This document shows, one piece after another, positions 1,461 to 63,722 of a stretch of 64,000 nucleotides of DNA (position 1 is its first letter; every line of letters begins with the position of its first letter). The stretch lies in the NCBI GenBank assembly GCA_902761035.1, contig CACWIW010000015.1:1586-65585 (forward strand). Reading direction: 5' to 3'. Made by a program: the position numbers and the translations under genes. This DNA is from an uncultured bacterium (lineage in GTDB: Bacteria > Verrucomicrobiota > Kiritimatiellia > RFP12 > UBA1067). The notes beneath the pieces were generated by a model. That model was given only the letters and a program-made list of their open reading frames with translations. It was not told the DNA's origin and searched no databases.

Positions 1461-1604
1461 CACCCCGCACCTTAAAAGGTCATGCATGTGAATAGTATAA
1501 GTCTAGTATGGGCAGAAATGCGCAGAAACACGGTAGAACGCCGTGTAAGGTGTTCGTTTAATCCTATTCCACACCCTATTCCTAACCGCACAGAGAAGCG
1601 CCCC

Positions 1605-45694: not shown

Positions 45695-47140
45695 ATGAAA
45701 TATGCATTTTATGGACGTGAAGAGCAAATCGCCGATTTGGAGAGGTTGTGGAACAAGCGAACCTCTTCATTCGTCACATGCAGAGGTCGTCGGCGCATTG
45801 GCAAATCAACGTTGATTGAACGATTTGCCGAGGTGTCTGGTGCCAGGTTCATCATGATTGAAGGCTTGCGTCCGACGAAAAGCCTTTCAAATGCTGCGGA
45901 ACTGGCGCACTTCGCGGCGCAGTTGTCTGAAACTATCGGTGAGGACGTTGAAGTTCCGGCAAATTGGTGGAAGGCCTTTCTTGATCTTGATTCCGCGATC
46001 AGAGACGGCAAGCGTACCGTCGTGTTGCTTGACGAGATATCGTGGATGGCCCATTATGACCCGTCGTTCGCGGGAACGCTCAAGACCGCATGGGATCGGT
46101 ATTTGAAGAAACATCCAAAGCTGATTCTGGTCGTCTGCGGCAGCGTGTCTAGTTGGATAAGGGAAAACATAATCGACGACGGCGCGTTCTTCGGACGTCG
46201 TTCGCTGGACATCGTGGTTCCTGAACTGCCCCTCTCTGAGTGTGTGAAGTTCTGGGGCAAGTCGATCGAGCGCCTTGATCTGAGTGAAGTGATTGACATC
46301 CTTTCCGTGGTTGGAGGCATCCCAAGGTATTTGGAGGAACTTACGACGGCAAACAGCGCCAACGAGAACATACGCGCGATGGCGTTCCGTCCAAAGTCGA
46401 TCCTGCGGACGGATTTCGACGAGATGTTTCAGGATGCCATCACGAGACAGCCGACGATGTGCGCACGAATAATCCGTCTGCTTGTCGCGGATTCGATGAG
46501 CGCGTCCGAGATAGCGGCAAAGCTTGACATCGACCGTAACGGCAATGTCAACAAGGCGCTGTCGCAATTGGAGGAGGCTGGACTTGTCGCCTGCGATGAA
46601 GGCAAGAATCCAGAGACGGGTGAGGACCTTCGCGAGAAACGCTATCGCCTCAAGGACAACTACTGCAGATTCTACCTCAAGTACATCGAGCCTGAAAAGA
46701 ACGTCATCGACAAAGGACAGTATGAGCTTGGATCTTTGGATCAGCTGGAGGGATGGGATGGCGTGAAGGGTCTTGCGTTCGAGAATCTCGTGGTGAACAA
46801 CTGCGCGGCGCTTCGTCCATTGCTCGGAATCGGTAAGGCGACGATCACCTCCATCGCCCCATACCGGCGCGCTGGATCGAGGGACGGAACGAGAAGCGGA
46901 CTGCAGGTGGATCTGCTTCTCCAGACGCGCAGGGCGGTCTATCTCATAGAGGTCAAGCGCAAGCGTGAAATCGGAAGGGAAGTGATACGGGAAATGGAGG
47001 AGAAAGTTCGCCTTCTGCCGAAACGCCCCGGGGTGTCGGTGCGTACCGCACTCGTGTACGAGGGAAATCTCGCACCAATTGTCGAGGCGGATGGCTATTT
47101 TGATGCGATTATTCCGTTCCGCCGTTTGCTTGGAGTGTGA
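45695..47140 (+). CDS. ATP-binding protein: archaeal-type ATPase (ATPase_2-like) with C-terminal DUF234/PD-(D/E)XK-like domain
   Basis: Motifs: Walker A CRGRRRIGKST, Walker B VVLLDEISW, and the C-terminal QVDLLLQTRRAVYLIEVKRKRE (a D...E.K nuclease-fold motif). Confidence 0.85.
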   Translation: MKYAFYGREEQIADLERLWNKRTSSFVTCRGRRRIGKSTLIERFAEVSGARFIMIEGLRPTKSLSNAAELAHFAAQLSETIGEDVEVPANWWKAFLDLDSAIRDGKRTVVLLDEISWMAHYDPSFAGTLKTAWDRYLKKHPKLILVVCGSVSSWIRENIIDDGAFFGRRSLDIVVPELPLSECVKFWGKSIERLDLSEVIDILSVVGGIPRYLEELTTANSANENIRAMAFRPKSILRTDFDEMFQDAITRQPTMCARIIRLLVADSMSASEIAAKLDIDRNGNVNKALSQLEEAGLVACDEGKNPETGEDLREKRYRLKDNYCRFYLKYIEPEKNVIDKGQYELGSLDQLEGWDGVKGLAFENLVVNNCAALRPLLGIGKATITSIAPYRRAGSRDGTRSGLQVDLLLQTRRAVYLIEVKRKREIGREVIREMEEKVRLLPKRPGVSVRTALVYEGNLAPIVEADGYFDAIIPFRRLLGV

Positions 47141-47272: not shown

Positions 47273-47441
47273 TACCCGCGATGCGGCGTAGTGTCACTAC
47301 AGGGTTGACAAGAGGTGATGAATATATTGCCAAAAGCCCGTGTAAATAAAAGGGGGTCGACGAATGCTCGATCTGGCGCACCGACTGCCACCCGCGTACG
47401 CTTCGCACACGAAGAATTTGAAACCCAAAAAGGAACAGGCA

Positions 47442-49814
47442 ATGAAGACACGAACCAGTCAAAACGGGGTAGCCGGGCTCATGTCCAGGCTCATCCACAA
47501 CATCAAGTCCGCGGCGCTCGCCCTCGCCGCGCTCGCCCTCGCCGCGCCGTCGGCGTGGGGAGCGTACACCTCCGGCATGCAATGGAAGGACGGAGTCAGC
47601 GGGAACTTGAACGCCGCCGTCAACTGGACGGGTGGGAAGGCTCCGGCGTCCGGCAATATCTTGGGATTCGTCAATTCGGGCGCCGGCGTTTCGTATGTCA
47701 CGAACAGCGCCGCCGCTTCATATCAGCCGCGGTTTGACAAGGGCAATTTCGTTCTTGTTGCAAGCAAGACACTCACGGCCAACAACGCCTTCCATCTTGC
47801 CAGTGGTGACGGCAATTATACAGGTCCGGCTTCCGTGACTAAATATGGCGATGTCGTGGCGAAGGGTTATCTGCATCTGGCGCAAGTAGCCAACTCTCAC
47901 GCCTACTTCACCAACATGACGGGAAGGCTCGTGGCAAATGACACCACGACTGGCGCACACCAGAACGGCCTTCGTCTTGCGACCGGTCAAGGCGCGGAGG
48001 CGGAATTCGTCATCCAAGGCGGATATGCGGTGTCGTCGAACGGCGTCACGATTGCGCATGGCAGCGACTCAACTGGGCGCATGATCATCAATGGTGGTTA
48101 TTTCTTCTCGTATGGAAACGGAAACGGCAAGAAGGTCGGCACGAACACGGTTGCCCATGCGTCGAACTCGACGGGACTGATCGAAATCAACGGCGGCGCG
48201 TACACGAACGAGAACTGGCTGTTCGTCGGCAATACGGCGGGGGCAACTGGAACGATACACGTGAAGAACGGCACCTTCAACCAGAAATGCACGACCGCGA
48301 ATTCGTTCGTCGTCGGCGGCGCACGCAGCACGGCATCGCATGGTTATTACATTCAGGAGGGCGGCACGGCCACGGCGGCGGCCGCAATGATCGTCGGCTT
48401 TGCGAATGGCGCGGACGGCCATGTGTTCATGAAGGGCGGAACTCTGAATCTCAACGGACAGAACCTCCATGTCGGCCCGACAAATGGCGGCTCTGGCGAG
48501 TTCGTCCAGAGCGGCGGCTCGGTCAACGTCAACATGGACTTCAAGCTCGGCAGGGCCGGTGCCGGTACGCTGACCGTCAGCAACGGCACGTTCACGGTCG
48601 CGAGCGGCAAGCAGATCTACATGTGCGAGGTCAACACCGGCAATGCGACCGTCAATCTCTGCGGCGGCACGCTTGTGACGAAGCACATGAGCATGGGCCC
48701 AGGCACTGCCGTTGTCAACTTCGACGGCGGCACGCTCAAGTCCAACAACACCAGCAACGATGGTCTGATTCAAGCCACCGTGCCGGTCAACGTCGGCCCC
48801 AAGGGCGGCACGATTGATACGGGCAACCGCGCCATCACGGTTCCGGCGGTTCTCGCGAGCGGCGTGAGCGGCGAGACCGACGGCGGCATGACGTTCAAGG
48901 GCGGCGGCACGGTCACGCTTACCGGCGTGAACACCTACACGGGCGCGACGGTGATCGACGCGGGCACGACGCTCCAGATGCCGGCGGCGAACAACCTTGC
49001 GGGCAATATCGTCGTCACGAACGCGACGTTTGCCGACTGTCCGCTTACAGTCCTCACGCTCACAGGCGGGAGCGACGTCGACGCCGCGCTTCTCGCGCGT
49101 TGCAGCCTCGCGGCGGACGCGCCCGATACGGTTGAGCTGACGGCTGACGGCGCGTCGGTGGTGGTTACAGCCAAAGCGTCCGTTCCTGTGACCGCCCGCA
49201 AGGTTTACGATTCGGGTGCGTATGTCTGGCGGTTCTACGACGTCAACGGCAACCTGATAACAGGAGCGGTCGATGAAAGCACTCTCGAAGCGGATTCCGT
49301 CACGGTGATCTTCGGATCGACCGCCGAACTGGCGGCGATTGGCACCGCCCCGGCGTGGGTTGGCGGCTGGCAGATGGCCTCGACGTTCGCGTTCGATCCT
49401 TCCTCTTCCGCCTCGCTTCCTGCGGGGTACACGTTTGACGCGGGGACGGTCATCGACCTGAGGGGCAGCAGCTGGACGCTTCCTGATGAGTGGAAGTCCG
49501 CCACGGTCGATTTCACCGTCACGAACAGCGTTGACGCGACGAAGGCCGTGCTGACGGTTGATGTTGCATCCGGCGCAACGTTCACCGAGACGCATCTCAC
49601 GCTTGGCGGCAACATTGAGCTGCGCAAGACCGGCGCGGGGACGTATGCCATGACGAAGGACCAGCAGCACACCGGCGGCTCGGTCGTCACGGCGGGCCCG
49701 CTGACCAGGGCTGGCACAGTGACGGTCGGCGTCGTAGCGGGTTCGTCGCAGAGCCTTTCCGTCGAGGGCGGGAGTTTCACCATGTCCGACAACGGAAGTC
49801 TGGTTGTCGGTTGA
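47442..49814 (+). CDS. Giant beta-helix surface protein A, N-terminal fragment (signal peptide plus autotransporter-associated beta-strand repeats); the gene is split by a frameshift
   Basis: ATG 47442 (the ORF opens at 47364) gives MKTRTSQNGVAGLMSRLIHNIKSAALALAALALAAPSAWGA, near-identical to the start of paralogue B. Repeated G-G-T-L/G-x-G-x-L beta-helix units follow. The fragment ends at TGA 49812-49814, where paralogue B reads on. Confidence 0.8.
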   Translation: MKTRTSQNGVAGLMSRLIHNIKSAALALAALALAAPSAWGAYTSGMQWKDGVSGNLNAAVNWTGGKAPASGNILGFVNSGAGVSYVTNSAAASYQPRFDKGNFVLVASKTLTANNAFHLASGDGNYTGPASVTKYGDVVAKGYLHLAQVANSHAYFTNMTGRLVANDTTTGAHQNGLRLATGQGAEAEFVIQGGYAVSSNGVTIAHGSDSTGRMIINGGYFFSYGNGNGKKVGTNTVAHASNSTGLIEINGGAYTNENWLFVGNTAGATGTIHVKNGTFNQKCTTANSFVVGGARSTASHGYYIQEGGTATAAAAMIVGFANGADGHVFMKGGTLNLNGQNLHVGPTNGGSGEFVQSGGSVNVNMDFKLGRAGAGTLTVSNGTFTVASGKQIYMCEVNTGNATVNLCGGTLVTKHMSMGPGTAVVNFDGGTLKSNNTSNDGLIQATVPVNVGPKGGTIDTGNRAITVPAVLASGVSGETDGGMTFKGGGTVTLTGVNTYTGATVIDAGTTLQMPAANNLAGNIVVTNATFADCPLTVLTLTGGSDVDAALLARCSLAADAPDTVELTADGASVVVTAKASVPVTARKVYDSGAYVWRFYDVNGNLITGAVDESTLEADSVTVIFGSTAELAAIGTAPAWVGGWQMASTFAFDPSSSASLPAGYTFDAGTVIDLRGSSWTLPDEWKSATVDFTVTNSVDATKAVLTVDVASGATFTETHLTLGGNIELRKTGAGTYAMTKDQQHTGGSVVTAGPLTRAGTVTVGVVAGSSQSLSVEGGSFTMSDNGSLVVG

Positions 49815-52800
49815 ACATCAACGGCGGCCAGGTGACAGTCAGCGGCTGGTCCTACCTTGCCAACAGCGCCACTTCCGGCGGTGCCGTGCTCAACCTGAAC
49901 GGCGGCACGCTTGCAACCAGGCGCATAAACGTCGGCACGACGGCAGACTCGCTGATTCTCTTCAACGGCGGCACTCTGTACATCAATGGGCTTACGAACG
50001 ACGGCTTCACCCTTGGCACCTCCGGCGGTGCGACCCCTGAACACCTGACCATCGCCGTCGCTGAAAAGGGCGGTACGATCAAGACGACAAACAACGATGA
50101 CCGGGTCAAGGTCTGCGCTGGCGTCGTCAAGGCTGACGGCGTAGCGGCTGACGGAGGACTGAAGATTGTCGGCGGCGGCAAGCTGACCTTCACGGGTTCG
50201 CTCGCCTACACGGGCGGCACGACGGTCGAGATCGGCACGACGCTCGTCGTCCCCGACACGTCGCTTGGCGGCGGACTTGCCGCGTCGCTCCCCGCGACGC
50301 AGTTTGCCGTCGGCACGACGAACACTCTCGTGACGACGACGGGCGCAGGTACGTTTACTGCTTCCGACCTCCCGGACGTTTCGGCGTGCCCGTTCTACCG
50401 GGCGATGCTTTCCGACGACGCGAAGAGCATCCTGGTCGTGCGCGTCGCCCCGGCGATGTCCGTGACGGGCTTCGATCCCGTGACAGGCGAGATAACGCTT
50501 GGGTTCGAGAACATGGACGGTGCGCTTGATGTCGTTGTCGCATGGGATTCGAGCGACCACGGCGCGACTCTCGCAAGCTGGCCTTCCGGCAAGAGCGTCA
50601 TCCTCGGCACGGTTGCGGCAGGCGCGACGACTGGCACGTTCACGCTTCCTGCGGAAGTCCTTAATGTAGGCACGCACTACCGCCTCTTCCTCGGCGGCGG
50701 CGCGGACACCGTTTACGATCAAGAGGTCAGATGGATCCGTCCCACCGCCCTTGGAGCCTACATCAAGACGGACTACAAGCCGACGGCAGGTTCCACGATG
50801 TACGCGAGGATTAATCTCAACAGTCGGACGTATTCCGCCGAGCCGGACTTCTATCAGGCATCGGGGAACTACCGCATCGGCATAAGCACGGCCGGCACGA
50901 GCTTCCACGTGTATATGCCTGGCAACGGCAATGACACGTTCGGAACGTATTCGGCATCATCCGACTTGAAGATATCGATGCATTATGTGAAAGGCACCTC
51001 GAATGTATTCTTTGTCAACGGTGCCGGCAAGGCCAGCAATAATTTTAACTGGGGTGGCAGCAACTATAACGTGACCGACTCGTCCAACCCGCTCTACATC
51101 TTCTCGAACTACGGCGGCACAGACCGTTATTCCCGTCCGATACTCTACAGTATGTCGTGGACGAATTCGTCGAACAAGGTTGCGGCGGACTTCATTCCCG
51201 TGAAGAAGGGTAGCGAATACGGCCTGTACGACAAGGTCGCCAAGAAGCTTTACCGCAACGCAGGTACGCAGGCGTTTGAATGCACCGATTCGACGGTTGT
51301 CTCCCTTGGCCCCGTCACCTTCGCCGACGGGCAGATGACGGCATCGGACGCGCAGCAGTATCATGGCGCGACGGTTCTCGACACGGCGAACTGCTCGATA
51401 ACCCAAAGCGGCTCGACGGCGACCATCAACTGGTCTTTGACCCAGCCGGGAGGCGCGTCGGCGGAGATCGTGGCCGTGTACCAGACCGGAAGCTCGTATG
51501 TCACGAACGTCATCGCGAGCGGCGCGGTTGCCGGAGATACCGGCAGCTACACGCAGAACGACCTCTGGGCCACGGGCGCCTTCACGATCACCCTGTTCGC
51601 AAGAAGCGGACAATACGAATCCGAGAAGGTCGTGAAGAACTGCTCCGCGACCACCGTGGCGAGCGTGCCGTCCGCGCCGGCGCTTTCTGCCGACGAGACG
51701 CTGCACCAGATCGCGGCGAGCGGCACGGTCGCGCTGGGCAGCGGCACGACGGTTGCGTGGCTCGACTACGGCGCGACCACGTCCTACGGCAAGAAGATCG
51801 ACCTGACGCTCAACGAGGGCGCGTGGGCGGCGACGATCCCCTACGACGACGTGCTCTGGAATGCGGGCGTGGTCCATGTGCGCGTGACGGCGTCGAACGA
51901 AGTGACGGGCGTGTTCGGTTCTTCCAAGTGTCAGAACTCCGCGACGGCAAACACCACATTTGCCACGGCCGGGCGCACGGTCACGCAGGGCAAGCTTAAT
52001 TCAAAGACTGGCGAAGTGCCGCTCACCTTCGGCGGCGGCGCGATGGCGGCGCAGGTTCTCGTCGTCGCGTGGGGCGACCACGACTACGGCGACGACCTTG
52101 CGTCCTGGCCGAGCGCAAACCGCAAGGTGATCGACACGGTTGCGGCAGACGCGACGACCGGCACGTTTACGCTTCCTGCCGAAGCGCGGGCTCTCGGCAC
52201 GTACTACCGCTTCTTCCTCGGCGACAGCGCGATTGTGCCCTACGACGAGGAAGTCGCGTGGATCCAGCCCAACGGCGTAGGCGCCTGCATCACGACAAGC
52301 TTTAAGCCCACGCAACAGCCAACTTTCGAAACAAAGATAAACCTTACGGATAATGCTATCGAAAGTGGATGCGACTATGGCAGTGTGTTCGATGCCGGCA
52401 CGGCCTATGCGTATGGCGTATGGGCGTTCTGCAACGCCTCCGGTAAAATTGGCGCAAGGCGTTGCGGTTTCGCTTATTCCTCCAAGACATACTCGGGCGA
52501 TGTAACGTTGTATGGAATATGGAGCGTTATCAAAAGCTCGGCACCGAATGCGACGTTCATGGTGAACAGCGATGTGGTGTACGCGTCGGGTTTCAACAAC
52601 ACCATGAGCGGCAATCCTTCGGTCGTCCGCTTCTGGGCGGGATTCAAGGGAGAGGCAGACGACAAGCAGTTCGGTGCTTCCGCCTACCGTTTCATCTATT
52701 CAAAGTGGTGGAATTCTGGGAAGACCACGCTGGAGGCCGACTTCATTCCCGTAAAGAAAGGCAACGAATACGGCCTGTACGACAAGATCGGCAAGAAACT

Positions 52801-52945
52801 TTACCTGAACGCGGGAGCGGAAGGGACGTCATTCAAGGGCGGCGAGAAGGTCGGCTACTCGCCTGTCACGTTCACCACGGTGCAGACGGCGGCGTCGGGC
52901 TCGAATCGTGTGCTGAAGCGCGGATCGGTCATTGCGGTGTACTAA
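49811..52945 (+). pseudogene. Giant beta-helix surface protein A, C-terminal fragment (-1 frame relative to the N-terminal fragment)
   Basis: TTG 49811 overlaps TGA 49812-49814 (TTGA). From MNINGG onward the product is collinear with paralogue B residues encoded from 60199. It has no signal peptide of its own. It contains two copies of a beta-sandwich plus FIPVKKG.EYGLYDK module and the tail LKRGSVIAVY. Confidence 0.7.
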
Positions 52946-52960: not shown

Positions 52961-55738
52961 ATGAAGACGTACGGTAAAATGCTTAAAATCGCAACCATCG
53001 CACTGGTTGCTGCGGCTGGTTCCGCGCTGGCGGAACCGGTTGACGCCGACGAAGCCAGGGCTGCTGTTGAAAACTGGCTTAAGTCCGGACGCGCCATGGG
53101 ATGCACGGGCATGGGGGATGTGTCCGACGTACAGGCGTACGACGGCAGGGAGGGCGTGGGCAAGTTCTACGTCATCTCGCTTAGGAACGGCGCGGGCGAG
53201 GCGGCGGGCTACGTCGTGACCTCCGCAGACCGCAAGCTGAATCCGGTGCTTGCCTACTCCGACGACGGCATATTTGGGGCGACTGACGAAAACCCGCTCT
53301 GGACGATGCTCACAATCGACGTGTCCGCCGTTACGAAGGGTCTGGCGGCAGAGGAGGCGGCGCAGCCGGCCGCGTCGTCCGGCAAGCGTCTTAGTGCGGC
53401 GGCGCCGACCGAAAACGAGAGGAAGTGGGCGGAGCTTCTGGGCGGCGCGTCGGCGGGCGGCTCCGGCACCCGCCTTCGCGGTAGTGCGTATTCAAGCATA
53501 TCCGACGTGCGTGTCACGCCGCTTCTCAGCACCAAGTGGGATCAGGACTACGACAAGCACTACAACGATACGTGGAACCTGATGACGCCGAGCAACTACG
53601 TATGCGGATGCGTGGCTACTGCGGCCGCCCAGATCATGAAATACTGGGCGTGGCCTGGCGCATCGACGAACATAACCGCCAAGACCGACTATACGGGAAA
53701 GGTGATCGTTGGCAGCGTCACAAATACCTGGAGGCTCTCCGACTTCACGACCGGCGCGAACAAGTACAGGCCCGCTTTCGGCGGCACCTACCAGTGGAGC
53801 GAAATGGCCGACGAATACAGCAATAGCAGCTCGGAAGCGTCCAGACTGGCCGTTGCCAAGCTCGTGCGCGACCTCGGCATGTCCGTACACATGTCCTACA
53901 AGTCCGGCGCCAGCAGCTCGATGAACCCGATCATGGCGGTGCGTTTCACCGACCAGTTCGCCTACGCCAACGCCATGTGCCGCTACCCGAACAACGAGAA
54001 CTGGGATGCGGAGAGGGACAACACGATTCGCGCGAACCTCGACGCCGGTCTTCCGCTTGGCGTGTCGGTTCCCGGACACGCAATCATCGCGGATGGCTAT
54101 GGCTACGAAAGCGGGACCCTTTACGTCCATTTCAACATGGGATGGGGCGGCTCCAAGAACTACTGGTACAATCCTCCCGACCTCACGGCCGCGGGTTACA
54201 CGGACTTCAACTCCATATCGTGCCTGATATTCAACGTCTATCCGCCGACGAAATGTGCCGAAGCCGGACGTTCGGTCGTGAGCGGTCGCATTTTCGATGA
54301 CTCAGGAAGACCGCTCGCCGGCGTCACGGTGGAGGCGCGGAAGGGAACGACGACATTCGCCACGACGACCTCGAACGACAAGGGCATCTACGCATTCCTG
54401 CTCCCGAAGGCGCAATACACTTTCCGCGCCGCGACAGACGAAGCCTACGCAACGACGAACATCACCGTCAAGGCCTGTACGTCTAACAGCATAAAGGCGG
54501 ACGAAACGGCTTTTTACGCCGGAGGCGACTCGACGGGCAACATCTACGGTGCGGATATTGTCGTAGACATCCCGGTTGTGCCGGTCGCCACGCCGGCGTT
54601 CTCGCCGAAATCTGGAACCAAGTTCTTCCGGGACGGGCAACTCGTCTCCATCACGTGCGGCACGAGCGGCGCGGAGATCCGTTATACGCTTGACGGTACG
54701 GAGCCAACGTCCGAAAGCGCTCTCTACAAGGGGGCCTTCAGCATTTCGTCGAGCGTGACAGTCAAGGCCCGGGCGTTCAAGATGGATTTCCCGGATAGCG
54801 AAATCGCCACGGCCACGTATGTGCGCAGTCCGATCGTCGGCGCGAACTTCGTACAGGACGCCGCCCCGGCGGCGGGGACGTCCCAGACCGTCAGCCTGCC
54901 CGTCGTCGGCGACTACTCCGTTTCGTTCTCGTACGCCGGCACGGCAGGACACTACGGCGAGAGCGTGGAGCTGCGCCTCGTCCGGGAAGGCGTCACGAAC
55001 GTCGTCGCGACGGTCGCGGCCTCCGGCGCGGGAACGTTCTCCACGAACCTCACGTGGATGGCGGACGCGGCGGGCGACTGGGAGCTTTACCTGTACGACG
55101 CCAACGGCTCATCGTCGGTCGCGCTCTCCGGCCTCAGCATCTCGATTCCCGCGACCGATGACAACCTGAAGCGCTACTGGGTCTATGAGACCCCGTTCAC
55201 GTTCGGCGCGACGGGCACGTGGGCGGAGGCCCCGGCGACGGCGGATGGACTTCTCAACCAAGATGGCGACAATGAGTTTACGCCGACGGCCTCTCCGGCG
55301 GGACGGACTGTCATCTACACGGCGCAGGTGAGCCTTGACGCGGGCGAGGACCTGCACGAGGATGCGAACGCGAAGGCGGCGGTGGGAATGCGTACCGTGA
55401 ACAATGCGCCCACGTTCGCGCTGCTCACGAAGTCCGCAGGCACGAACGCGTGGGTGGACGTCTCCGCCAATGGGCTTGGCGCGCCCCAGGCGAGTGTGGA
55501 ATACACCATCGTGTTCTACCTCGACTGCACGAGCCGCACCTACAAGGCGTCTGTTGTCGTGGACGGCAAGCCACGGACGCTGTTCGCCGCCGACGGGAGG
55601 AAACGCTTTGCGTTTGCCGGCACTGCCACGCCCGTTGCCGGCAAAGTGGAGTTCTCGGACTGCAAAGGCGCGACGAAACTCACCGGCGAGTATTCAGATG
55701 AAAGGATCAAGGATGGCGTAATCATTGTGGTCCATTGA
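52961..55738 (+). CDS. Secreted peptidase C10 (streptopain family) with CarboxypepD_reg-like and chitobiase/hexosaminidase-C-like (CHB_HEX_C_1) domains
   Basis: The signal peptide is MKTYGKMLKIATIALVAAAGSALA. The Cys context is NYVCGCVATAAAQIMKYW and the His context is PGHAIIADGYGY. Downstream come SGRIFDDSGRPLAGVTVEA..GIYAF and FSPKSGTKFFRDGQLVSITCGTSGAEIRYTLDGTEPT. The tail reads IKDGVIIVVH. Confidence 0.9.
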   Translation: MKTYGKMLKIATIALVAAAGSALAEPVDADEARAAVENWLKSGRAMGCTGMGDVSDVQAYDGREGVGKFYVISLRNGAGEAAGYVVTSADRKLNPVLAYSDDGIFGATDENPLWTMLTIDVSAVTKGLAAEEAAQPAASSGKRLSAAAPTENERKWAELLGGASAGGSGTRLRGSAYSSISDVRVTPLLSTKWDQDYDKHYNDTWNLMTPSNYVCGCVATAAAQIMKYWAWPGASTNITAKTDYTGKVIVGSVTNTWRLSDFTTGANKYRPAFGGTYQWSEMADEYSNSSSEASRLAVAKLVRDLGMSVHMSYKSGASSSMNPIMAVRFTDQFAYANAMCRYPNNENWDAERDNTIRANLDAGLPLGVSVPGHAIIADGYGYESGTLYVHFNMGWGGSKNYWYNPPDLTAAGYTDFNSISCLIFNVYPPTKCAEAGRSVVSGRIFDDSGRPLAGVTVEARKGTTTFATTTSNDKGIYAFLLPKAQYTFRAATDEAYATTNITVKACTSNSIKADETAFYAGGDSTGNIYGADIVVDIPVVPVATPAFSPKSGTKFFRDGQLVSITCGTSGAEIRYTLDGTEPTSESALYKGAFSISSSVTVKARAFKMDFPDSEIATATYVRSPIVGANFVQDAAPAAGTSQTVSLPVVGDYSVSFSYAGTAGHYGESVELRLVREGVTNVVATVAASGAGTFSTNLTWMADAAGDWELYLYDANGSSSVALSGLSISIPATDDNLKRYWVYETPFTFGATGTWAEAPATADGLLNQDGDNEFTPTASPAGRTVIYTAQVSLDAGEDLHEDANAKAAVGMRTVNNAPTFALLTKSAGTNAWVDVSANGLGAPQASVEYTIVFYLDCTSRTYKASVVVDGKPRTLFAADGRKRFAFAGTATPVAGKVEFSDCKGATKLTGEYSDERIKDGVIIVVH

Positions 55739-55850: not shown

Positions 55851-57629
55851 TTGGAGAAAAAACGCAAGATACCATACGGCGTCATCAACTGGGCCAAACT
55901 GGTCCGGGAATGCCTGTTTGTTGACAACACGGCCTACATCCGCAAGCTGGAGGATGTGGACACTCCCGTGTTCCTGCGTCCAAAGCGGTTTGGCAAGTCG
56001 ATCGTCTGTTCCATGCTCGCGCACTACTACGACGTCAACCTCAAGGATCGTTTCGACGAACTCTTCGGAAAGACCGACATCGGACGCAACCCGACGCCGC
56101 TCCGCAACTCGTTTCTCGTCCTCCAGTTCGACTTCTCGACCATACAGGTGGGGACTCTCGCGGAGATCGAGCGGAACTTCGTTGAACACGTCCGGGGACG
56201 TGTGGAGCGTTTTGCGACGCAATACGCCTCGTTAGCCGACTGGTCGAGGGCTTTGGAACCAGATGGCCCAGCAGCCATGATTGACAAGGTGCGTGACATC
56301 ATCAAGAACGCTGAGCTGCCCCCCCTCTACGTCATCATCGACGAGTACGACAACTTCACGAACGAGCTGGTGGTCTCGGGGCGCGACTTGGAGTACAACG
56401 CCGTCTGCGGGCACGATTCGAAGGGCGACGTGACGAGAGAATCGTTCTTCAAGGCGTTCTTCAAGTCGTTCAAGGCGGGCCTTGCGGACGGCACGGTTGG
56501 GCGCACGTACTTCACGGGCGTGTTGCCAATCACGCTCGACGATCTCTCCAGCGGCTTCAACGTTGGAACGGTCGTGAGTCTGGACAAGTCGCTGCTGGGG
56601 CTTGCTGGCTTCTCGAAGGCCCAGGTGAAGCGGTACGTCGACGAAGTCTTCGTCGAACATGGACTCGACCCCTCGATCAAGCCTGCTGTGCTGGCCGACC
56701 TCAAGGCGTTCTACGACGGCTACCGCTTCCTGCCGGACGCGGAGTCGTTGTACAACTCGACCATCTGCAACTGGTATCTGCGCAACCTCGTGAGTTCACG
56801 CAAACTGCCGACGGACGTCATAGATGCAAACGTCAGGACTGACATCGGCTGGTTCCGGCGGTTGGCGGGAAGCTCGGCGAACGCGCTTGCGAAAGTTCGC
56901 CAATATGTCGAAAGCGGCGAGGGGGAGAAGGTGTTCAGGGCGTCTCTTTCCTCCAAGTTCGGACGTGCGAAGTTCTTCACCGAGGAGTTCTTCCCCTACG
57001 CGATGTACTATCTCGGCCTTCTGACTTTTGAGAATCCGTTCAGGCTCAACATCCCGAACCTGACGATCAAGAACATGTTTGTCGATTACTACGACGAGCT
57101 TTCCGAGTTCACGAACGTCGATGAGGCGCGCACGGCGTTCAGCGACGCGGCCGAAGCGCTCGCCCTGGGAGATGGTTTGTGGAAAGCCCTCTTCGACGCC
57201 TACTGGCGGCACTACGTGAAGGCCCGCATCCCCGCGCAGGCATTCGACAAGATGAACGAGAACTTCTTCCGCACCACGTTCACCTCGCGCTGCATGGACG
57301 TTCTGCCGATGTTCTACTCCTTCGAGACGGAGTACAACTCGTCCGAGGGACGCTGCGACTTCCTCGCGATACCGAAGCCCGGCGTCGCCAAGCCCGCGCA
57401 GCTTGTCGAGTTCAAGTACTTCACGAACGCGGCGGCGGAGAAGGGGAACGCCCTCGGCCGCGCCGAACCGGACGCGGAGACGGTCGAGCAGGCGCTCGCC
57501 TACCGCAAGGCCCTCGCGCGGCGTCCCGACTGGAACCACCCGATCGCGGCGACGGTCGTCGAGGTCTGCGGCAACACGGGCTACAACTGGTTCGACTTGC
57601 CGGAGAGCAAACCCTTGCCTATAAGTTGA
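55851..57629 (+). CDS. Predicted AAA-ATPase (AAA-ATPase_like family) with C-terminal PD-(D/E)XK nuclease-fold domain (PDDEXK_9-like)
   Basis: The start is TTG 55851. Motifs: KIPYGVINWAKLVRECLFVDNTAYIRKL, Walker A-like RPKRFGKS, Walker B YVIIDEYDN, and the C-terminal GRCDFLAIPK...LVEFKY. Confidence 0.85.
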   Translation: MEKKRKIPYGVINWAKLVRECLFVDNTAYIRKLEDVDTPVFLRPKRFGKSIVCSMLAHYYDVNLKDRFDELFGKTDIGRNPTPLRNSFLVLQFDFSTIQVGTLAEIERNFVEHVRGRVERFATQYASLADWSRALEPDGPAAMIDKVRDIIKNAELPPLYVIIDEYDNFTNELVVSGRDLEYNAVCGHDSKGDVTRESFFKAFFKSFKAGLADGTVGRTYFTGVLPITLDDLSSGFNVGTVVSLDKSLLGLAGFSKAQVKRYVDEVFVEHGLDPSIKPAVLADLKAFYDGYRFLPDAESLYNSTICNWYLRNLVSSRKLPTDVIDANVRTDIGWFRRLAGSSANALAKVRQYVESGEGEKVFRASLSSKFGRAKFFTEEFFPYAMYYLGLLTFENPFRLNIPNLTIKNMFVDYYDELSEFTNVDEARTAFSDAAEALALGDGLWKALFDAYWRHYVKARIPAQAFDKMNENFFRTTFTSRCMDVLPMFYSFETEYNSSEGRCDFLAIPKPGVAKPAQLVEFKYFTNAAAEKGNALGRAEPDAETVEQALAYRKALARRPDWNHPIAATVVEVCGNTGYNWFDLPESKPLPIS

Positions 57630-57716: not shown

Positions 57717-60700
57717 ATGAAGACACGAACCAGCCAAAACGGGGTAGCCGGGCTCATGTTCAGGCTCATCCTCAACATCAAGTCCGCGGCGCTCGCCCTC
57801 GCGGCGCTCGCCCTCGCCGCGCCGTCGGCGTGGGGGGCTGACTACACCTGGAAAGACGGCGCGAGTGGCAATACCAATGTCGGCTCGAACTGGACGGGGG
57901 GAACTGCTCCCACAAGCGGGGTGAACAAGCCGATCTTCAACAATACCGGGACTGCGCTTTCGACGGTGAACAACAACATCACAATGTCGAATAGCACGCG
58001 TTTCGACGATGGGACAGTAAAAAACGGTGTTTTCAGTTTCACAGGCAATTGGTATTTCAAGACCTTCAGCATGGCGGATACGGAAAACAGCCAGGCGACT
58101 GTGACAAAGACCGGTACATGGACTTGCAACAACGGAGGGGGCTCTACATACCAGTTCAGATATGGCATAGGCAAGAACTCCAAAGCATCGTTCACGAACG
58201 TATCTGGCGACATCGGCGATATCGCCACGGGGCGTGCGACCCGCGACATGGATTTTACAGTTGGACATGGCGAAGGTTCCGACGCGGAGTTCATTCTCAA
58301 GGCGGGTACGGTGACGTCCAGCACGGCGCTTGTCCTCGGGTACGGCACATCCTCAAAGGGATTGCTCGTGATGGACGGCGGCGCGATGAACTGCAAGACC
58401 ACGAACGTCGTTGCCCGTGGGACGGGATCAACTGGCATAGCGAGAATCAACGGCGGAACCTTTACCGGCAACAGCAAGCCGTTTTATGTCGCCAAGGGTG
58501 CGAACTCGACCGGCACGGTTGTCGTCAACGGCGGCACGCTCAAAACAGCAGATGTCTTTCTTGGCAACGATACTGGCGCAAATGCCTCTGTCATCGTCAG
58601 CAACGGCACCGTATCGGCGAGCGGACACACCCATATCGGGTACAAGTCAGGCGGCGTGACGACCAACTATTTCGAGGTTGCAGGCGGAGACTTTTCGCAG
58701 ACTGCGGCAAACATGCACTTGTACATCGGAAGCGAGGGCGCGACCGGCACGAAGGCGGAAGTCTGCGCGAAGGGCAACGGCAAGATGAACATCTCGCGTT
58801 CCATAATCCTCGGAAACAAGGTCGGCGGGACGCTGACGGTCAAGGACAACGCGCAGGTCACGCTCGGCACGAAGACAGCCGACGGCCATGTCAACATGTG
58901 CTACGCTTCGACATACAACGGCGACCCCAGCTACCTGAATCTCGACGGCGGTACGCTTACAACAAAGATGGTCACCTACGGCAGCGGTACCTCCGGCAAT
59001 GCGTTTGTGACGTTCAACGGTGGCACGCTCAAGGCCAATCAGGCAACAACGACGTTCATCGCGGACAAACCAAGGCTTTTCGCAAAGGTTGGCGCCAAGG
59101 GTGGCACGATCGACTCGGCTGGCTTCGCCATCACGATTCCGAAGGCGATTGAGAGCGGCGTGAGCGGCGAGACCGACGGCGGCATGACGTTCAAGGGCGG
59201 CGGCACGGTCACGCTTACCGGCGCGAATACCTACACTGGCGTGACGGTGATCGACGCGGGAACGACGATTCAGATGCCGGCGGCGAACAACCTTGCGGGC
59301 AATATCGTCGTCACGAACGCGACGTTTGCCGACTGTCCGATTACGGTTCTCACGCTTACCGGCGCGGGCGCGGACGCAAGCGACATCCTCTCGCGTTGCA
59401 GCCTTGCGGCTGATGCGCCCGATACGGTTGAGCTGACGGTCGACGGCGCGTCGGTGAAGGTTGTCCAGAAGGCATCCGCCCCTGCGACCGCCCGGTTGGT
59501 CTATGATCAGGGCACGGACTCCTGGAACTGGGAGTTCCGCGACACAACGGATGCTGTGATTCCCTCTGTCGATCAAAGTGCGCTTGAAGCGTCTTCCATC
59601 ACCGTACGCTTTGGCTCGACCGACGAACTGGCGGCGATTGGCACAGCCCCGGCGTGGGTCGGCGGCTGGCAGATGACTGCGGCGTTCGATCTCGTCTCCG
59701 CCAGCGCCGCAACCGCGCTTCCGGCTGGATTCACCATCGGGGCGGGAACTGTCATCGACTTGAAGGGCTGCAACTGGACGCTTCCCGACGGGCTGAAGTC
59801 CGCCACGGTCGATTTCACCGTCACGAACAGCGTTGACGCGACGAAGTCCGTGCTGACGGTCGATGTCGCGTCCGGCGCAACGTTCACCGAAACATATCTC
59901 ACGCTTGGCGGCAATCTTGAGCTTCGCAAGACCGGCGAGGGTACGTACGCGATGACGAAGGACCAGCCCCATACGGGCGGCACGGTCGTCACGGATGGCC
60001 CGCTGACCAGGTCTGGCACAGTGACGGTTGGCGTCGTAGCGGGTTCGTCGCAGAGCCTCTCCGTCGAGGGTGGGAGTTTCACTACGTCCAACAGCGGGAA
60101 TCTGGTTGTCGGTGCAAACGGCGTCGGCGAGTTCACCATCACGAACGCCACGGCGACGATGAACAGTCTCTACGTCGGCAACGGCACGGGGTCCGGGACG
60201 ATGAACATCAACGGCGGGACGCTGACGGTCGGCGGCTGGTCCTTCCTTGCCAACAGTGCCACTTCCGGCGGAGCCGTGCTCAACCTGAACGGCGGCACGC
60301 TTGCAACCCGGCGCATAAACGTCGGCACGACGGCGGACTCGCTGATTCTCTTCAACGGCGGCACGCTGTACATCAATGGAGTTACGACCGACGGCTTTAC
60401 CCTCGGCACCTCCGCCGGGGCGACCCCCGAACACCTGACCATCGCCGTCGGCGAAAACGGCGGCACGATCAAGACGACATACGACGATGACAAGGTCAAG
60501 GTCTGCGCCGGCATCGTCAAGGCGGACGGCGTGGAGACGGACGGCGGACTTCGCATCGAGGGCGGCGGCAAGCTGACCGTCACGGGTTCGCTCTCCTACA
60601 CGGGCGGCACGACGGTCGAGATCGGCACGACGCTCGTCATCCCCGACACGTCGCTCGGCGGCGGGCTTTCCGCCACCATTCCTGATACTCAGCCTGACGT

Positions 60701-63700
60701 CGGCACGACGAACATTCTCGTGAAGACGGCGGGCGAGGGCGTGTTCACCGACTCCGACCTTCCCGATGTCACGGCGTTCCCGTACTACAGGGCGATGCTT
60801 TCCGAGGACGCGAAGAGCATCCTGGTTGTGCGCGTCGCCCCGGCGATGTTCGTGACGGGATTCAATCTCGAGACGGGCGAGATAACCTTGGGATTCGAGA
60901 ACATGGACGGCGCGCTTGATGTCGTCGTCGCGTGGGACACGACCGACCATGGTGCGCGCTTTGACAACTGGCCAACCGGTAAGAGCACCGTCCTCACCAA
61001 CGAAGTCGCGGCAGGCACGACGACCGCCACGTTTAAGCTTCCTGCGGCAGTCCTTGGCAATGTCGGCATGTACTACAGGATATTCCTCGGTATTGAGGAT
61101 ACAATCTACGATCAACAAGTTGCATGGATTCAGCCCGCAGCCCTCGGTGCCTACATCAAGACGGACTACAAGCCGACGGCGGGTTCATGGATGGCAGCTA
61201 GAATAAACCTCAATGGCCAGACGTATTCCGCAGAGCCGGACTTCTATCAGGCATCGGGGAACTACCGAATCGGCATAAGTACGGCCGGCACGAGTTTCCA
61301 CGTGTACATGCCTAGCATGGGCAATGCCACTTTTGGCACATTCTCACACAACAATGCCTTGAACATATTGATGCATTACGTGAAAAGCGCCCAGAATGTT
61401 TTCTTTGTCGACGGGAGCGGCAAGGCCCACAATAATTTTAACTGGGCTGGCAACTATTCAGTGTCCGACTCGACAAATCCGCTCTACATCTTCTCGAACT
61501 ACGGCGGCACAAGCCGTTATTCCCGTCCGATGCTCTACAGCATGTCGTGGACGAATTCGTCGAACAAGGTTACTGCAGACTTCATTCCCGTGAAGAAGGG
61601 CAGCGAATACGGCCTGTACGACAAGATTGCCAAGAAACTCTACCTGAACTCCGGCGCGGAGGGAACGTCGTTCACGGGCGGCAGTGCGGTGGATGGCGAT
61701 AATCCGCCGATGTCGTTTGGGGCGGGACAGATGGCTGCTACCGACACCCTGCGGTATTACGGCACGACGGTTCTTGACGAGGAGAACTGCTCGATAACCA
61801 TGAACGGCGCCACGGCGAACATCAACTGGGCACTTGAGCAGCCAGGAGGCGAGTCGGCGGATATTGTGGCCGTGTTCAAGACCGGAAGCGCGGCAGTCAC
61901 GAATGTACTTGCGACGGGGGTTGGTGCAGGTAGTAACGATGTCGCCATAGTTGAGAATGTCTATGCCACAGGACAGATCACGGTCACGCTCTTCGCGAGA
62001 AGCGGTGGAAACAAGTCGGTGGATCTCTCGTGGACATTCCCCGGGACTACTGTGGCGAGCGTGCCGTCCGCGCCGGTGCTTTCCGTCGATGAGACGCTGC
62101 ACCAGATCGCGGCGACAGGCATGGTCTCGTTCGGTAGCGGCACGACGTCCGTAAGGCTTGAATACGGCGCGACTACGTCCTACGGCAAGACGATCGATTT
62201 GACGCTTGATGAGGATGCGTGGAGTGCGACGATCCCCTACGATGACGCGCTTTGGAAAGCTGGCAAGGTCTGTGTGTGTGTGAAGGCGGTCAACGAGATT
62301 GTGGGCATCTTTGGCACTTCCAGACAAGAGCGTACCGCAACGGCAAACGCCTCCTTCACAAAAGCCGAAGCGCGCACGATCACGTTGACCGCGTTCAATC
62401 GCGATAATCCCACGCACCCCACGACGGGTACGGCGACGCTCGCATTCGGCGGTGAAGCGGCCGCGGCGCAGGATCTCGTGATCGCGTGGGGCGACCATGA
62501 CTACGGCGAAAACATCGGATCGTGGCCGCGCGCCAACCGCAAGGTCATCGGTTCCGTCGCGGTGGGTGATTTGTCCGGCACTTACACGCTGCCCCCGGAG
62601 GCATTGGTCTCCGGCACGTACTACCGCTTCTTCCTCGGCGACCGCGCGGTCGCGCCCTACGACGAGGAGGTCGAGTGGCTCCAGCCGGAGGTTAGCGGCG
62701 CATACATCAATACGGGCTATACCCCGGCGAGCACTGACAAGGCCGAGTTCAAGTTCAACATGGACAATCAGGTTTACAGTGACGCTGACTACAGGACAAT
62801 CTTTGCCGCCGGCAGCGGATGGCAGAAAACAATGCATACGGCAGTCAATCGGGACGGATGGATGTCCAACGTCCGTGCTGGTACTATTCGCTTCGCGGCG
62901 AAAGGCAGCAACAACATCGTGACAGGATTTGACAGGTTTACCGATCATGTCGTGAAGATTGTCTATCAAGGCGATGTCGACAAGTTCTTCACGATCGATG
63001 GCAAGACCGGAAACAACATCTACCATGAGTATACAGATGGCAGCGCGACCGTGACAAGCACCTGGAACACCTACAACAACACCTTCTACGGGCCGAATTC
63101 CTCGTTGAAGATCTGGGCGAACGGCAGCAGCACGCCGTCGATGGTGAAACTCTACTACATGAAGTGGATGAACTCGTCGGGCACGGTAATACACGAGTAC
63201 ATCCCCGTCGTAAAGAGTGGCGAATATTGCCTGTACGATATAAATACGGCAAAGGTATTGCACAACGTGGGCGCTGAGGGCACGTCGTTCACGGGCGGTT
63301 CGAGGACGGGCTATTCACCGCTCACCTTCGAGGAGGTGCAGACGGCGGTGTCGAGTGTCAGGATGGTGGGCACGGTTGAGATTACCGAGCGCGACTGGGC
63401 GAGACCGAATGAGAACGTGACCTTGGAATGGTCTGCGTCCAGCGTCGCCACAAAGCTGTGGGTCGCGTATTCAACAGAGCCGATTAGTGCCGCTCCGGGC
63501 GAGTTCGCTGATCCAAGCGCATGGAGCTTCTGCACCAATGTTGCCTCCGTCGCGGCGAACGACACGACCGGCACCTACGCGCTTGGCGATCCGCTCGGCG
63601 ACGGCAACAGGTACAAGACAATGCGCTTCATCCTTTCGAAGGACGGGGATACGCTGGTTCCGCTGCTCGTCTCCGAGCCGTACCGCACGCTGAAGCAGGG

Positions 63701-63722
63701 AAGCGTCATCTACATGAGGTAG
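57717..63722 (+). CDS. Giant beta-helix surface protein B (2,001 aa): signal peptide, autotransporter-associated beta-strand repeats, two beta-sandwich/jelly-roll-like modules, an extra C-terminal domain and the conserved tail
   Basis: ATG 57717 (the ORF opens at 57642). The signal peptide ends ...AAPSAWGA. The motif GGTIDSAGFAITIPKAIESGVSGETDGGMTFKGGGTVTLTGANTYTG is typical of PATR-type repeats. The modules end FIPVKKGSEYGLYDKIAKKLYLN and YIPVVKSGEYCLYDINTAKVLHN. The tail reads LKQGSVIYMR. Confidence 0.9.
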   Translation: MKTRTSQNGVAGLMFRLILNIKSAALALAALALAAPSAWGADYTWKDGASGNTNVGSNWTGGTAPTSGVNKPIFNNTGTALSTVNNNITMSNSTRFDDGTVKNGVFSFTGNWYFKTFSMADTENSQATVTKTGTWTCNNGGGSTYQFRYGIGKNSKASFTNVSGDIGDIATGRATRDMDFTVGHGEGSDAEFILKAGTVTSSTALVLGYGTSSKGLLVMDGGAMNCKTTNVVARGTGSTGIARINGGTFTGNSKPFYVAKGANSTGTVVVNGGTLKTADVFLGNDTGANASVIVSNGTVSASGHTHIGYKSGGVTTNYFEVAGGDFSQTAANMHLYIGSEGATGTKAEVCAKGNGKMNISRSIILGNKVGGTLTVKDNAQVTLGTKTADGHVNMCYASTYNGDPSYLNLDGGTLTTKMVTYGSGTSGNAFVTFNGGTLKANQATTTFIADKPRLFAKVGAKGGTIDSAGFAITIPKAIESGVSGETDGGMTFKGGGTVTLTGANTYTGVTVIDAGTTIQMPAANNLAGNIVVTNATFADCPITVLTLTGAGADASDILSRCSLAADAPDTVELTVDGASVKVVQKASAPATARLVYDQGTDSWNWEFRDTTDAVIPSVDQSALEASSITVRFGSTDELAAIGTAPAWVGGWQMTAAFDLVSASAATALPAGFTIGAGTVIDLKGCNWTLPDGLKSATVDFTVTNSVDATKSVLTVDVASGATFTETYLTLGGNLELRKTGEGTYAMTKDQPHTGGTVVTDGPLTRSGTVTVGVVAGSSQSLSVEGGSFTTSNSGNLVVGANGVGEFTITNATATMNSLYVGNGTGSGTMNINGGTLTVGGWSFLANSATSGGAVLNLNGGTLATRRINVGTTADSLILFNGGTLYINGVTTDGFTLGTSAGATPEHLTIAVGENGGTIKTTYDDDKVKVCAGIVKADGVETDGGLRIEGGGKLTVTGSLSYTGGTTVEIGTTLVIPDTSLGGGLSATIPDTQPDVGTTNILVKTAGEGVFTDSDLPDVTAFPYYRAMLSEDAKSILVVRVAPAMFVTGFNLETGEITLGFENMDGALDVVVAWDTTDHGARFDNWPTGKSTVLTNEVAAGTTTATFKLPAAVLGNVGMYYRIFLGIEDTIYDQQVAWIQPAALGAYIKTDYKPTAGSWMAARINLNGQTYSAEPDFYQASGNYRIGISTAGTSFHVYMPSMGNATFGTFSHNNALNILMHYVKSAQNVFFVDGSGKAHNNFNWAGNYSVSDSTNPLYIFSNYGGTSRYSRPMLYSMSWTNSSNKVTADFIPVKKGSEYGLYDKIAKKLYLNSGAEGTSFTGGSAVDGDNPPMSFGAGQMAATDTLRYYGTTVLDEENCSITMNGATANINWALEQPGGESADIVAVFKTGSAAVTNVLATGVGAGSNDVAIVENVYATGQITVTLFARSGGNKSVDLSWTFPGTTVASVPSAPVLSVDETLHQIAATGMVSFGSGTTSVRLEYGATTSYGKTIDLTLDEDAWSATIPYDDALWKAGKVCVCVKAVNEIVGIFGTSRQERTATANASFTKAEARTITLTAFNRDNPTHPTTGTATLAFGGEAAAAQDLVIAWGDHDYGENIGSWPRANRKVIGSVAVGDLSGTYTLPPEALVSGTYYRFFLGDRAVAPYDEEVEWLQPEVSGAYINTGYTPASTDKAEFKFNMDNQVYSDADYRTIFAAGSGWQKTMHTAVNRDGWMSNVRAGTIRFAAKGSNNIVTGFDRFTDHVVKIVYQGDVDKFFTIDGKTGNNIYHEYTDGSATVTSTWNTYNNTFYGPNSSLKIWANGSSTPSMVKLYYMKWMNSSGTVIHEYIPVVKSGEYCLYDINTAKVLHNVGAEGTSFTGGSRTGYSPLTFEEVQTAVSSVRMVGTVEITERDWARPNENVTLEWSASSVATKLWVAYSTEPISAAPGEFADPSAWSFCTNVASVAANDTTGTYALGDPLGDGNRYKTMRFILSKDGDTLVPLLVSEPYRTLKQGSVIYMR

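Follow-up and report, generated by a model that had tools for sequence, protein, structure and literature searches.

The C-terminal signals LPXTG and PEP-CTERM and the C-terminal domain (CTD) of the T9SS each led to the discovery of a dedicated machine of the cell envelope, and all are now routinely employed in the prediction of surface proteomes. The tripartite signals of the exosortase (TIGR02595, PF07589), sortase and rhombosortase systems consist of a signature motif, a transmembrane (TM) helix of about 20 residues and an Arg-rich cluster. The type A CTD of the T9SS (TIGR04183, PF18962), characteristic of Bacteroidota, is a β-sandwich of 70-100 amino acids (aa), the last strand of which, according to the family logo, ends in a basic residue. 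The β-signal of outer membrane proteins (OMPs; BamA/BamD) is the last strand of a barrel, with alternating hydrophobic positions and an aromatic end. A much shorter element is the plug of PilC/PilY1, a 12-residue C-terminal tail that docks an SPI-exported adhesin of about 110 kDa into the minor pilin PilK; modelled alone, this tail shows no order, and it associates with PilK through β-strand augmentation (Denic et al. 2026, bioRxiv 10.64898/2026.09.18.752573).

Here we analyze a stretch of 64,000 nucleotides (hereinafter, the window) from the genome of an uncultured rumen bacterium of the Kiritimatiellia, in which an earlier note, made from the DNA alone, had described a shared 10-residue C-terminal tail on three large secreted proteins as a candidate novel sorting or anchoring signal. 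The three tails are copies of an autonomous, lineage-specific tag that, within one genus of these bacteria, is present on about 100 large Sec-exported proteins per genome. The tail described in the earlier note is real, enriched at the terminus and not covered by any curated family, whereas its extent is 7 residues rather than 10, and one of the three tails, that of a C10 peptidase, is not conserved; the sorting or anchoring function is what we infer for it.

A tag of 7 residues without a membrane segment lies outside all known classes of such signals. Like the PEP-CTERM, LPXTG and GlyGly-CTERM signals, it is found at the extreme C-terminus of many unrelated secreted proteins per genome, is restricted to a lineage and varies in copy number between species; in contrast to the tripartite signals, it contains neither their signature motifs nor a TM helix nor an Arg-rich cluster. 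Assignment to the PEP-CTERM class was rejected given the lack of a PEP motif, a TM segment and a match to TIGR02595 or PF07589, and assignment to the sortase substrates was rejected because the last 40 residues of the members contain no LPXTG-like motif or TM segment. Genuine PEP-CTERM proteins, about six in number, are encoded in the same genome as well, such that it also has a classical set of exosortase-type substrates; these are small proteins, separate from the tagged ones. Four of them (about 225 aa) are encoded in tandem (contig C13, 37190-43429), and two more are encoded on contigs C1 and C33. With the T9SS CTD, the tag shares the C-terminal position on Sec-exported adhesins, glycan-binding proteins and proteases, including C10 peptidases, but only 7 residues are general here and the upstream part is not required; membership in the CTD families was rejected as there is no HMM match and the tag can be located 5 residues past a complete LamG domain. 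A search for SprA (TIGR04189) yielded no match in the tag-rich genomes G000, G219, G223 and G221, a weak negative considering that 14 control genomes were likewise silent.

Like the OMP β-signal, the tag is a β-strand-like C-terminal motif in which a Gly precedes the hydrophobic positions by a few residues, and it is found on Sec-exported proteins of a diderm. The tag differs in its continuous hydrophobic run, its K/R end and its presence on β-helix and LamG proteins that contain no barrel, whereas the organism's own BamA and OMP-like ORFs end in a classical β-signal with F, Y or W (...FSFTIGYDF, ...SYRF, ...QYQF). An OMP β-signal or an autotransporter (T5SS) was rejected because the modelled last 240 aa of a typical member form a β-helix rather than a barrel and no autotransporter β-domain is matched; a type I (T1SS) signal is excluded as well, given that most members have classical Sec signal peptides, and there is no RTX match. 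In an hmmscan of six members against Pfam and NCBIfam (E≤0.1), the tail was not covered by any model, in agreement with the earlier statement that it is unlike the PEP-CTERM and LPXTG types, having no TM segment or basic cluster, and much smaller than the CTD of the T9SS. Literature searches did not turn up a description of such a tag. Being absent from the curated libraries and from the searched literature, the tag looks like an undescribed address or docking label.

The three tails of the window and the terminal heptapeptide

Translation of the window confirmed the presence and the location of the three tails (Table 1). Giant A ends in RVLKRGSVIAVY, with LKRGSVIAVY at 52913-52942 and the stop codon at 52943-52945; the C10 peptidase ends in ERIKDGVIIVVH, with the last residue at 55735; and giant B ends in RTLKQGSVIYMR, with the last residue at 63719. 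By Pfam, the C10 peptidase consists of a signal peptide, an Inhibitor_I69 propeptide, the Peptidase_C10 domain, CarboxypepD_reg, CHB_HEX_C and a C-terminal region without assignment. Giant B contains a signal peptide, a PATR β-helix, repeated LamG-like modules and an extra domain of about 110 aa, followed by the tail. In the protein alignment, giant A corresponds to giant B without this extra domain, and the tail is retained at the extreme end, as the earlier note had maintained. The description of giant A as one protein, however, does not hold: it is represented by two overlapping ORFs (the overlap is TTGA), the frame being broken by a deletion relative to giant B. This deletion, of about 90 nt and not a multiple of three, maps to the region 49640-49960, with the junction at 49811-49814; according to the DNA alignment, it created the stop codon of the 5′ ORF, which as an open frame spans 47364-49814. 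The split could reflect a pseudogene, a coupled split gene or an assembly error.

Table 1. Tail-bearing genes of the window and their terminal heptapeptides (positions in the window)
Feature	Coordinates	Strand	Description and evidence
Giant A, 5′ ORF	47442..49814	+	Sec signal peptide (MKTRTSQNGVAGLMSRL...APSAWGA) and PATR/β-helix region; translation, PATR match
Giant A, 3′ ORF	49811..52945	+	1044 aa from TTG, tail-bearing, without own signal peptide; alignment with giant B
Giant A, heptapeptide	52922..52942	+	G-S-V-I-A-V-Y-COOH; variant with A at -3 and terminal Y
C10 cysteine peptidase	52961..55738	+	925 aa; translation, Pfam
C10 peptidase, heptapeptide	55715..55735	+	G-V-I-I-V-V-H-COOH
Giant B	57717..63722	+	About 2001 aa from ATG
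Giant B, heptapeptide	63699..63719	+	G-S-V-I-Y-M-R-COOH

With G at position -7, all three window tails are in register with the genome-wide tag described below; the terminal Y and H are minority variants that are also present in other clear members. The two other secreted proteins of the window (1482-4442 and 4447-7866) have no tail, as noted previously. The assembly around the window consists of 315 contigs (6.1 Mb, 59.7% G+C), and a 98%-identical copy of the window locus is present in the rumen MAG RUG14821.

The 10-residue pattern originally proposed for the tail proved over-fitted, given that in the entire 6.1-Mb genome it matches the three window ORFs only; its L/I-K-x part is not general. 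Relaxed patterns brought out dozens of large ORFs ending in ...DGLYxxxG[FL][MV]IIV[KR], and the conserved unit consists of the last 7 residues, G-[FLM]-[MVTI]-[IL]-[IL]-V-[KR]-COOH. This core pattern terminates 95 ORFs of at least 300 aa, whereas 0.63 would be expected judging by how often the pattern occurs internally, and is found on 54 of the 307 ORFs of at least 1000 aa. All 95 matches are at offset 0 from the stop codon, whereas any other offset yields 0-3. The tail is enriched approximately 70-150-fold at the exact C-terminus. Under a criterion that is independent of the Gly (four hydrophobic residues followed by K/R and the stop codon, in ORFs of at least 300 aa), 96 ORFs were detected versus 1.35 expected, and 85 of the 96 have G at -7. 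The information content is 2.0-3.1 bits at each position from -7 to -1 and less than 1 bit at every position upstream; because the information is confined to the last 7 residues, the unit is a heptapeptide. In the G-independent set, V occupies position -2 in 80 of the 96 ORFs and I is preferred at -3 and -4. The terminal residue is K or R in 89 of the 95 core members (and in 96 of 96 in the G-independent set, by construction) and occasionally Q, E, Y, H or F; these variants imply that a basic charge is dispensable.

About half of the members comprise one paralogous family with some 240 aa of shared C-terminal sequence, and part of the tag count is therefore due to paralogy. HMMs of the 60-aa and 48-aa tails were rejected as general detectors since they catch the canonical, DDGLY-type family and miss the three window proteins; judging from these sequence comparisons, the heptapeptide alone is the general part of the tail. 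The codons of the tag follow the genome-wide synonymous usage, all three stop codons are used, and the DNA downstream is not conserved. The synonymous codon diversity and the unconserved downstream DNA rule out a DNA-level repeat as the cause of the tag; the constraint is on the peptide. The final sense codon is AAG, CGG or AGG in 69 of 97 tagged ORFs and the stop codon is TAG in 50 of the 97; compared with the Arg codon usage of the genome, CGG and AGG are over-used as the last codon, which may be a stop-context effect.

Modularity, structural context and distribution of the tag

Clustering of the 120-residue segments that precede the tag gave at least 24 clusters that share no BLAST similarity with one another; one canonical family includes 47 ORFs, 23 other clusters include 50, and the three window proteins are singletons. 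In a 344-aa ORF of contig C198, the Laminin_G_3 domain reaches profile position 149 of 151 at residue 330 and is followed by FM-GSTSA-GFMVIFK; as the domain is complete at residue 330, the tag sits on a 5-residue linker outside the complete fold. The commonest upstream element is a 40-residue module (W..P.N..V.F...DDGLY) that is also found in internal copies. Nearly all internal copies (64 of 65) stop at profile position 39-40 and lead into the next module with no heptapeptide in between, in contrast to the terminal copies, all 213 of which reach position 45-48. In genus g7 of a sister family, giant ORFs of 5000-9800 aa (loci L003-L010) contain internal copies of this module that lack the terminal heptapeptide.

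In most members, a strand, DG-turn, strand pattern immediately precedes the tag. The AF2 model of the last 240 aa of one canonical member, for which 39 paralogues served as input (pLDDT 87.7, pTM 0.87), consists of a β-helix and the three strands that precede the tag. In this model, KGFMLIVK has no secondary structure, with confidence decreasing from 96 to 81 at the final block of ten residues, which suggests a tag that is unpaired on a folded protein, with the caveat that missing DSSP structure in a monomer model is no proof of a free tail. A fold search with the canonical C-terminal model returned only weak β-helix matches, none of these at E≤0.001. The AF2 model of the giant B C-terminus (pLDDT 46) is too poor to interpret.

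The orthologues of giant B (42-48% identity) retain both the extra domain and the tag, ending in ...MRAGTAIFFR in G223 and in ...KKEGLSVFIR in G218 and G221. Among the homologues of a canonical 821-aa member, which range from 25% to 98% identity, P0193 is the only one that does not keep the tag at the exact terminus; the hydrophobic residues of the tag swap with one another, and K/R prevails as the last residue, with Q, E or Y in occasional cases. In contrast, the orthologues of the window C10 peptidase in G223, G218 and G220 (about 50% identity) part from the window protein precisely at the start of its tail and carry, in place of the heptapeptide, a module of about 170 aa that ends in ...AKFFRPAI...; on this peptidase, the tag is found only in the window lineage and in the 98%-identical relative G219. 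Thus, the conservation in orthologues that the earlier note had proposed as a check on the signal is seen for giant B and for the canonical member but not for the C10 peptidase. The alternative module recurs on four or five other ORFs of this genome, and given that the tag and the 170-aa module alternate among the C10 orthologues, the tag is able to replace another C-terminal module. The window peptidase gained the tag where the sister species have the longer module, a replacement that fits a portable functional element. The module itself (...AAWLNSM...DAWLLNLD..., ending in ...AKFFRPAI or ...KFYKAVIE) has no Pfam match and may be a second, undescribed C-terminal module; it is encoded at L016 1507-4758 (G223), L040 3-815 (G218) and L041 756-1499, minus strand (G220), and, in the genome analyzed here, on contigs C71, C11 and C168.

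Among 1.84 billion representative proteins, the profile of the canonical 48-residue tail detected 599 clusters (E≤0.001), nearly all of which end at the last residue. The distribution across genomes was assessed with a degenerate DNA pattern for the heptapeptide and stop codon, a strict form that does not reach the looser variants. This pattern has 71 matches in the present genome, compared to 3 for the reversed control. Within the genus, three sister species have 46-66 matches, seven others have 11-15 and the rest have 0-4; the counts are high in G000, G219, G223 and G221 and near zero in G204, G205, G206 and G212. Matches were at the control level in other genera of the family and order and in 300 genomes from 148 genera across the phylum. 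The strict form of the tag thus represents, among the sampled genomes, a genus-level expansion.

Exported cargo and the search for a reader

Clear Sec signal peptides were identified in 72 of the 95 core members, and most of the remaining members are truncated, either at a contig end or by a frame break. When all ORFs were scored with a stricter caller, 79% of the tagged and 40% of the untagged ORFs were positive (odds ratio 5.6, p about 1e-12), which bears out the enrichment among signal-peptide proteins that the earlier note had put forward as a check. The signal peptides are classical, with AxA-type cleavage sites, often ...AAICVAAAxPSYA. A near-identical signal peptide (M.TK.IRAA.AAICVAAA.PSYA) is common to many tagged ORFs despite differing mature parts (for example, on contigs C67, C138, C185 and C11), such that both gene ends of the tagged ORFs look like exchangeable cassettes.

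The tagged cargo includes PATR β-helix proteins, LamG lectin-like proteins, LRR proteins and C10 peptidases, and by its domain content looks like surface adhesins and enzymes; tag carriers that have database names are listed as "hypothetical protein [Kiritimatiellae bacterium]". The family of C10 (streptopain-like) peptidases with an I69 propeptide is expanded, with at least 35 matches here, 29 in G219 and 17-21 in G223 and G221, compared to 1-5 in most species of the genus; the expansion includes the window ORFs at 1482-4442 and 52961-55738. Across the genus, the C10 copy number rises with the tag count, a correlation that is trivial for the most part, given that many of the C10 proteins are themselves tagged.

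Analysis of the neighborhoods of the tag genes revealed neither a recurrent envelope gene nor a linked protease gene. The recurrent neighbors are orphan ATPases and AraC-type regulators. Three orphan ATPase families are scattered through the tag-bearing variable regions (contigs C2, C21, C80, C126 and C134); the PF09820+PF08011 ATPase/PD-(D/E)XK proteins have 22 copies near tag genes (in the window, 55851-57629), and the PF01637 ATPase+HTH proteins have 7 copies (in the window, 45695-47140). The third, a five-copy family of proteins of about 410 aa ending in ...PLWLFGFLY, was considered as a candidate OMP and rejected since these proteins are cytoplasmic ATPases with a Walker A motif. An additional Omp85/TpsB-type transporter was likewise dismissed as a reader given that there is one Omp85 per genome regardless of the tag count. 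The genome contains 11 prepilin-type ORFs, mainly in two clusters; none of the 97 tag genes has one within 5 kb, and none of the prepilin-type ORFs is tagged. A dedicated gene co-occurring with the tag, as envisaged in the earlier note, was not found by the neighborhood, SprA, pilin and Omp85 searches.

Possible functions and comparison with the PilC/PilY1 plug

With the existence of the tag, its location at the exact terminus, modularity, conservation, association with exported proteins and distinctness from known signals shown, the reading of the tag by a partner and the outcome of this reading are what we infer. We lean, with modest confidence, towards an autonomous sorting or docking tag that acts in surface docking or export hand-over via β-strand augmentation, by analogy with described systems. 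After Sec export and removal of the signal peptide, the tag would remain unpaired at the end of the folded protein, where an envelope component would capture it by β-strand augmentation, with the terminal carboxylate and the basic side chain fixing the register. The capture would either dock or retain the protein at the cell surface or pass it to an outer-membrane export step.

A different reading posits an intramolecular structural cap, in which the last hydrophobic strand folds back and shields the edge or core of the terminal β-structure, has no sorting role and is terminal simply because it ends the fold. Given that β-helix proteins generally need end caps, that a third strand would complete a small meander with the strand, DG-turn, strand pattern, and that, in the upstream domain's internal copies, the chain proceeds into a further module at the place of the tag, as expected if the tag substitutes for a module, such a role is conceivable; the mean pLDDT of the last model block, still at 81, is also compatible with it. 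However, the AF2 model pairs the tag with no strand, and a cap would require neither the same 7 residues across unrelated folds nor the strict terminal position (offset 0 in 95 cases). The location of the tag behind a complete LamG fold, on a 5-residue linker, and behind at least 24 unrelated contexts, along with conservation that peaks in the tag and collapses immediately upstream, further argues against a cap, which we consider unlikely. A direct lipid or LPS anchor, with the five hydrophobic residues inserted in the outer-membrane leaflet and the Lys/Arg snorkeling to the head groups, would involve no protein receptor, in line with the neighborhood, pilin and Omp85 searches, in which no reader gene was found; the hydrophobic run that is continuous rather than alternating and has a basic end, and the similarity of the cargo to surface adhesins and enzymes, point in the same direction. 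Nevertheless, judging by hydrophobicity scales, five residues would be too few to hold proteins of 100-250 kDa, the Gly at -7 and the position-specific preferences suggest specific recognition over bulk hydrophobicity, and variants with a terminal E or Q exist, all of which makes such an anchor rather improbable.

PDZ proteases, such as Tsp and DegS, recognize hydrophobic C-termini with a free carboxylate, and the strict terminal position would fit a processing or quality-control tag that is read by a periplasmic PDZ protease (of the Prc/Tsp, CtpA or DegP type) or by a C10 peptidase that trims, matures or degrades the tagged proteins; the expansion of the C10 family in the genus, with its copy number rising with the tag count, would be compatible with the latter. 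The ligands of PDZ domains, however, normally end in a hydrophobic residue rather than in the K/R that is found in 89 of the 95 core members, the correlation is largely accounted for by the C10 proteins that are themselves tagged, and no protease gene is linked to the tag genes; we judge the probability of this scenario to be low. As for a chance resemblance or an ORF-calling artefact, under which the window tails would be unrelated to each other and to the genome-wide pattern, one could point to their atypical residues (S at -6, terminal Y or H, and A at -3 in giant A), to the 60-aa tail HMM that misses them, to the C10 tail that is missing from orthologues and to the broken frame of giant A. 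Yet fewer than 1.4 matches are expected genome-wide, compared to about 96 observed, the tail of giant B is kept in three orthologues, giants A and B can be aligned tail to tail despite the domain indel, and a terminal H or Y is present in other clear members; this explanation is already disfavoured and appears highly improbable.

If the tag is a real address label, it would define the surface or secreted proteome of abundant uncultured glycan degraders of the rumen and gut, with their repertoire of lectin-like, β-helix and C10 peptidase proteins, would point to a reader in the cell envelope of the PVC type, and would provide a very small portable tag for surface display. The range of copy numbers within one genus, from 0 to 71, offers a natural handle for a search for the reader by phyletic profiling. 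A broader and more tentative possibility, which we regard as somewhat doubtful, is an undescribed envelope sorting or display system of this genus, in which a bare 7-residue β-strand, with neither a TM segment nor a folded domain, is captured by a receptor through β-augmentation; about 100 giant proteins per cell, of the adhesin, lectin and protease types, would thereby be displayed or exported. If true, this would extend the principle of the one-protein PilY1 plug to a proteome-wide address label and would make the tag the shortest known bacterial C-terminal sorting signal.

The PilC/PilY1 plug of type IVa pili resembles the heptapeptide in being a short tail at the exact C-terminus, unstructured in the monomer model, of a large Sec/SPI-exported protein that is not a pilin. 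The plug acts by β-augmentation into its partner and displays an adhesin-like protein, which for the heptapeptide is a proposal by analogy only. The differences are substantial: the plug comprises 12 residues and is present on one or two proteins per genome, whereas the tag comprises 7 residues and is present on about 100 proteins with unrelated domains; and the plug always follows the PilY1 β-propeller and is encoded together with minor-pilin genes, whereas the tag shows no linkage to pilin genes and is not accompanied by the PilY1 domain, with no Pfam or NCBIfam match to the β-propeller (IPR008707) in the 16 members scanned. Of the systems compared, the plug is the closest mechanistic precedent for the proposed action of the heptapeptide.
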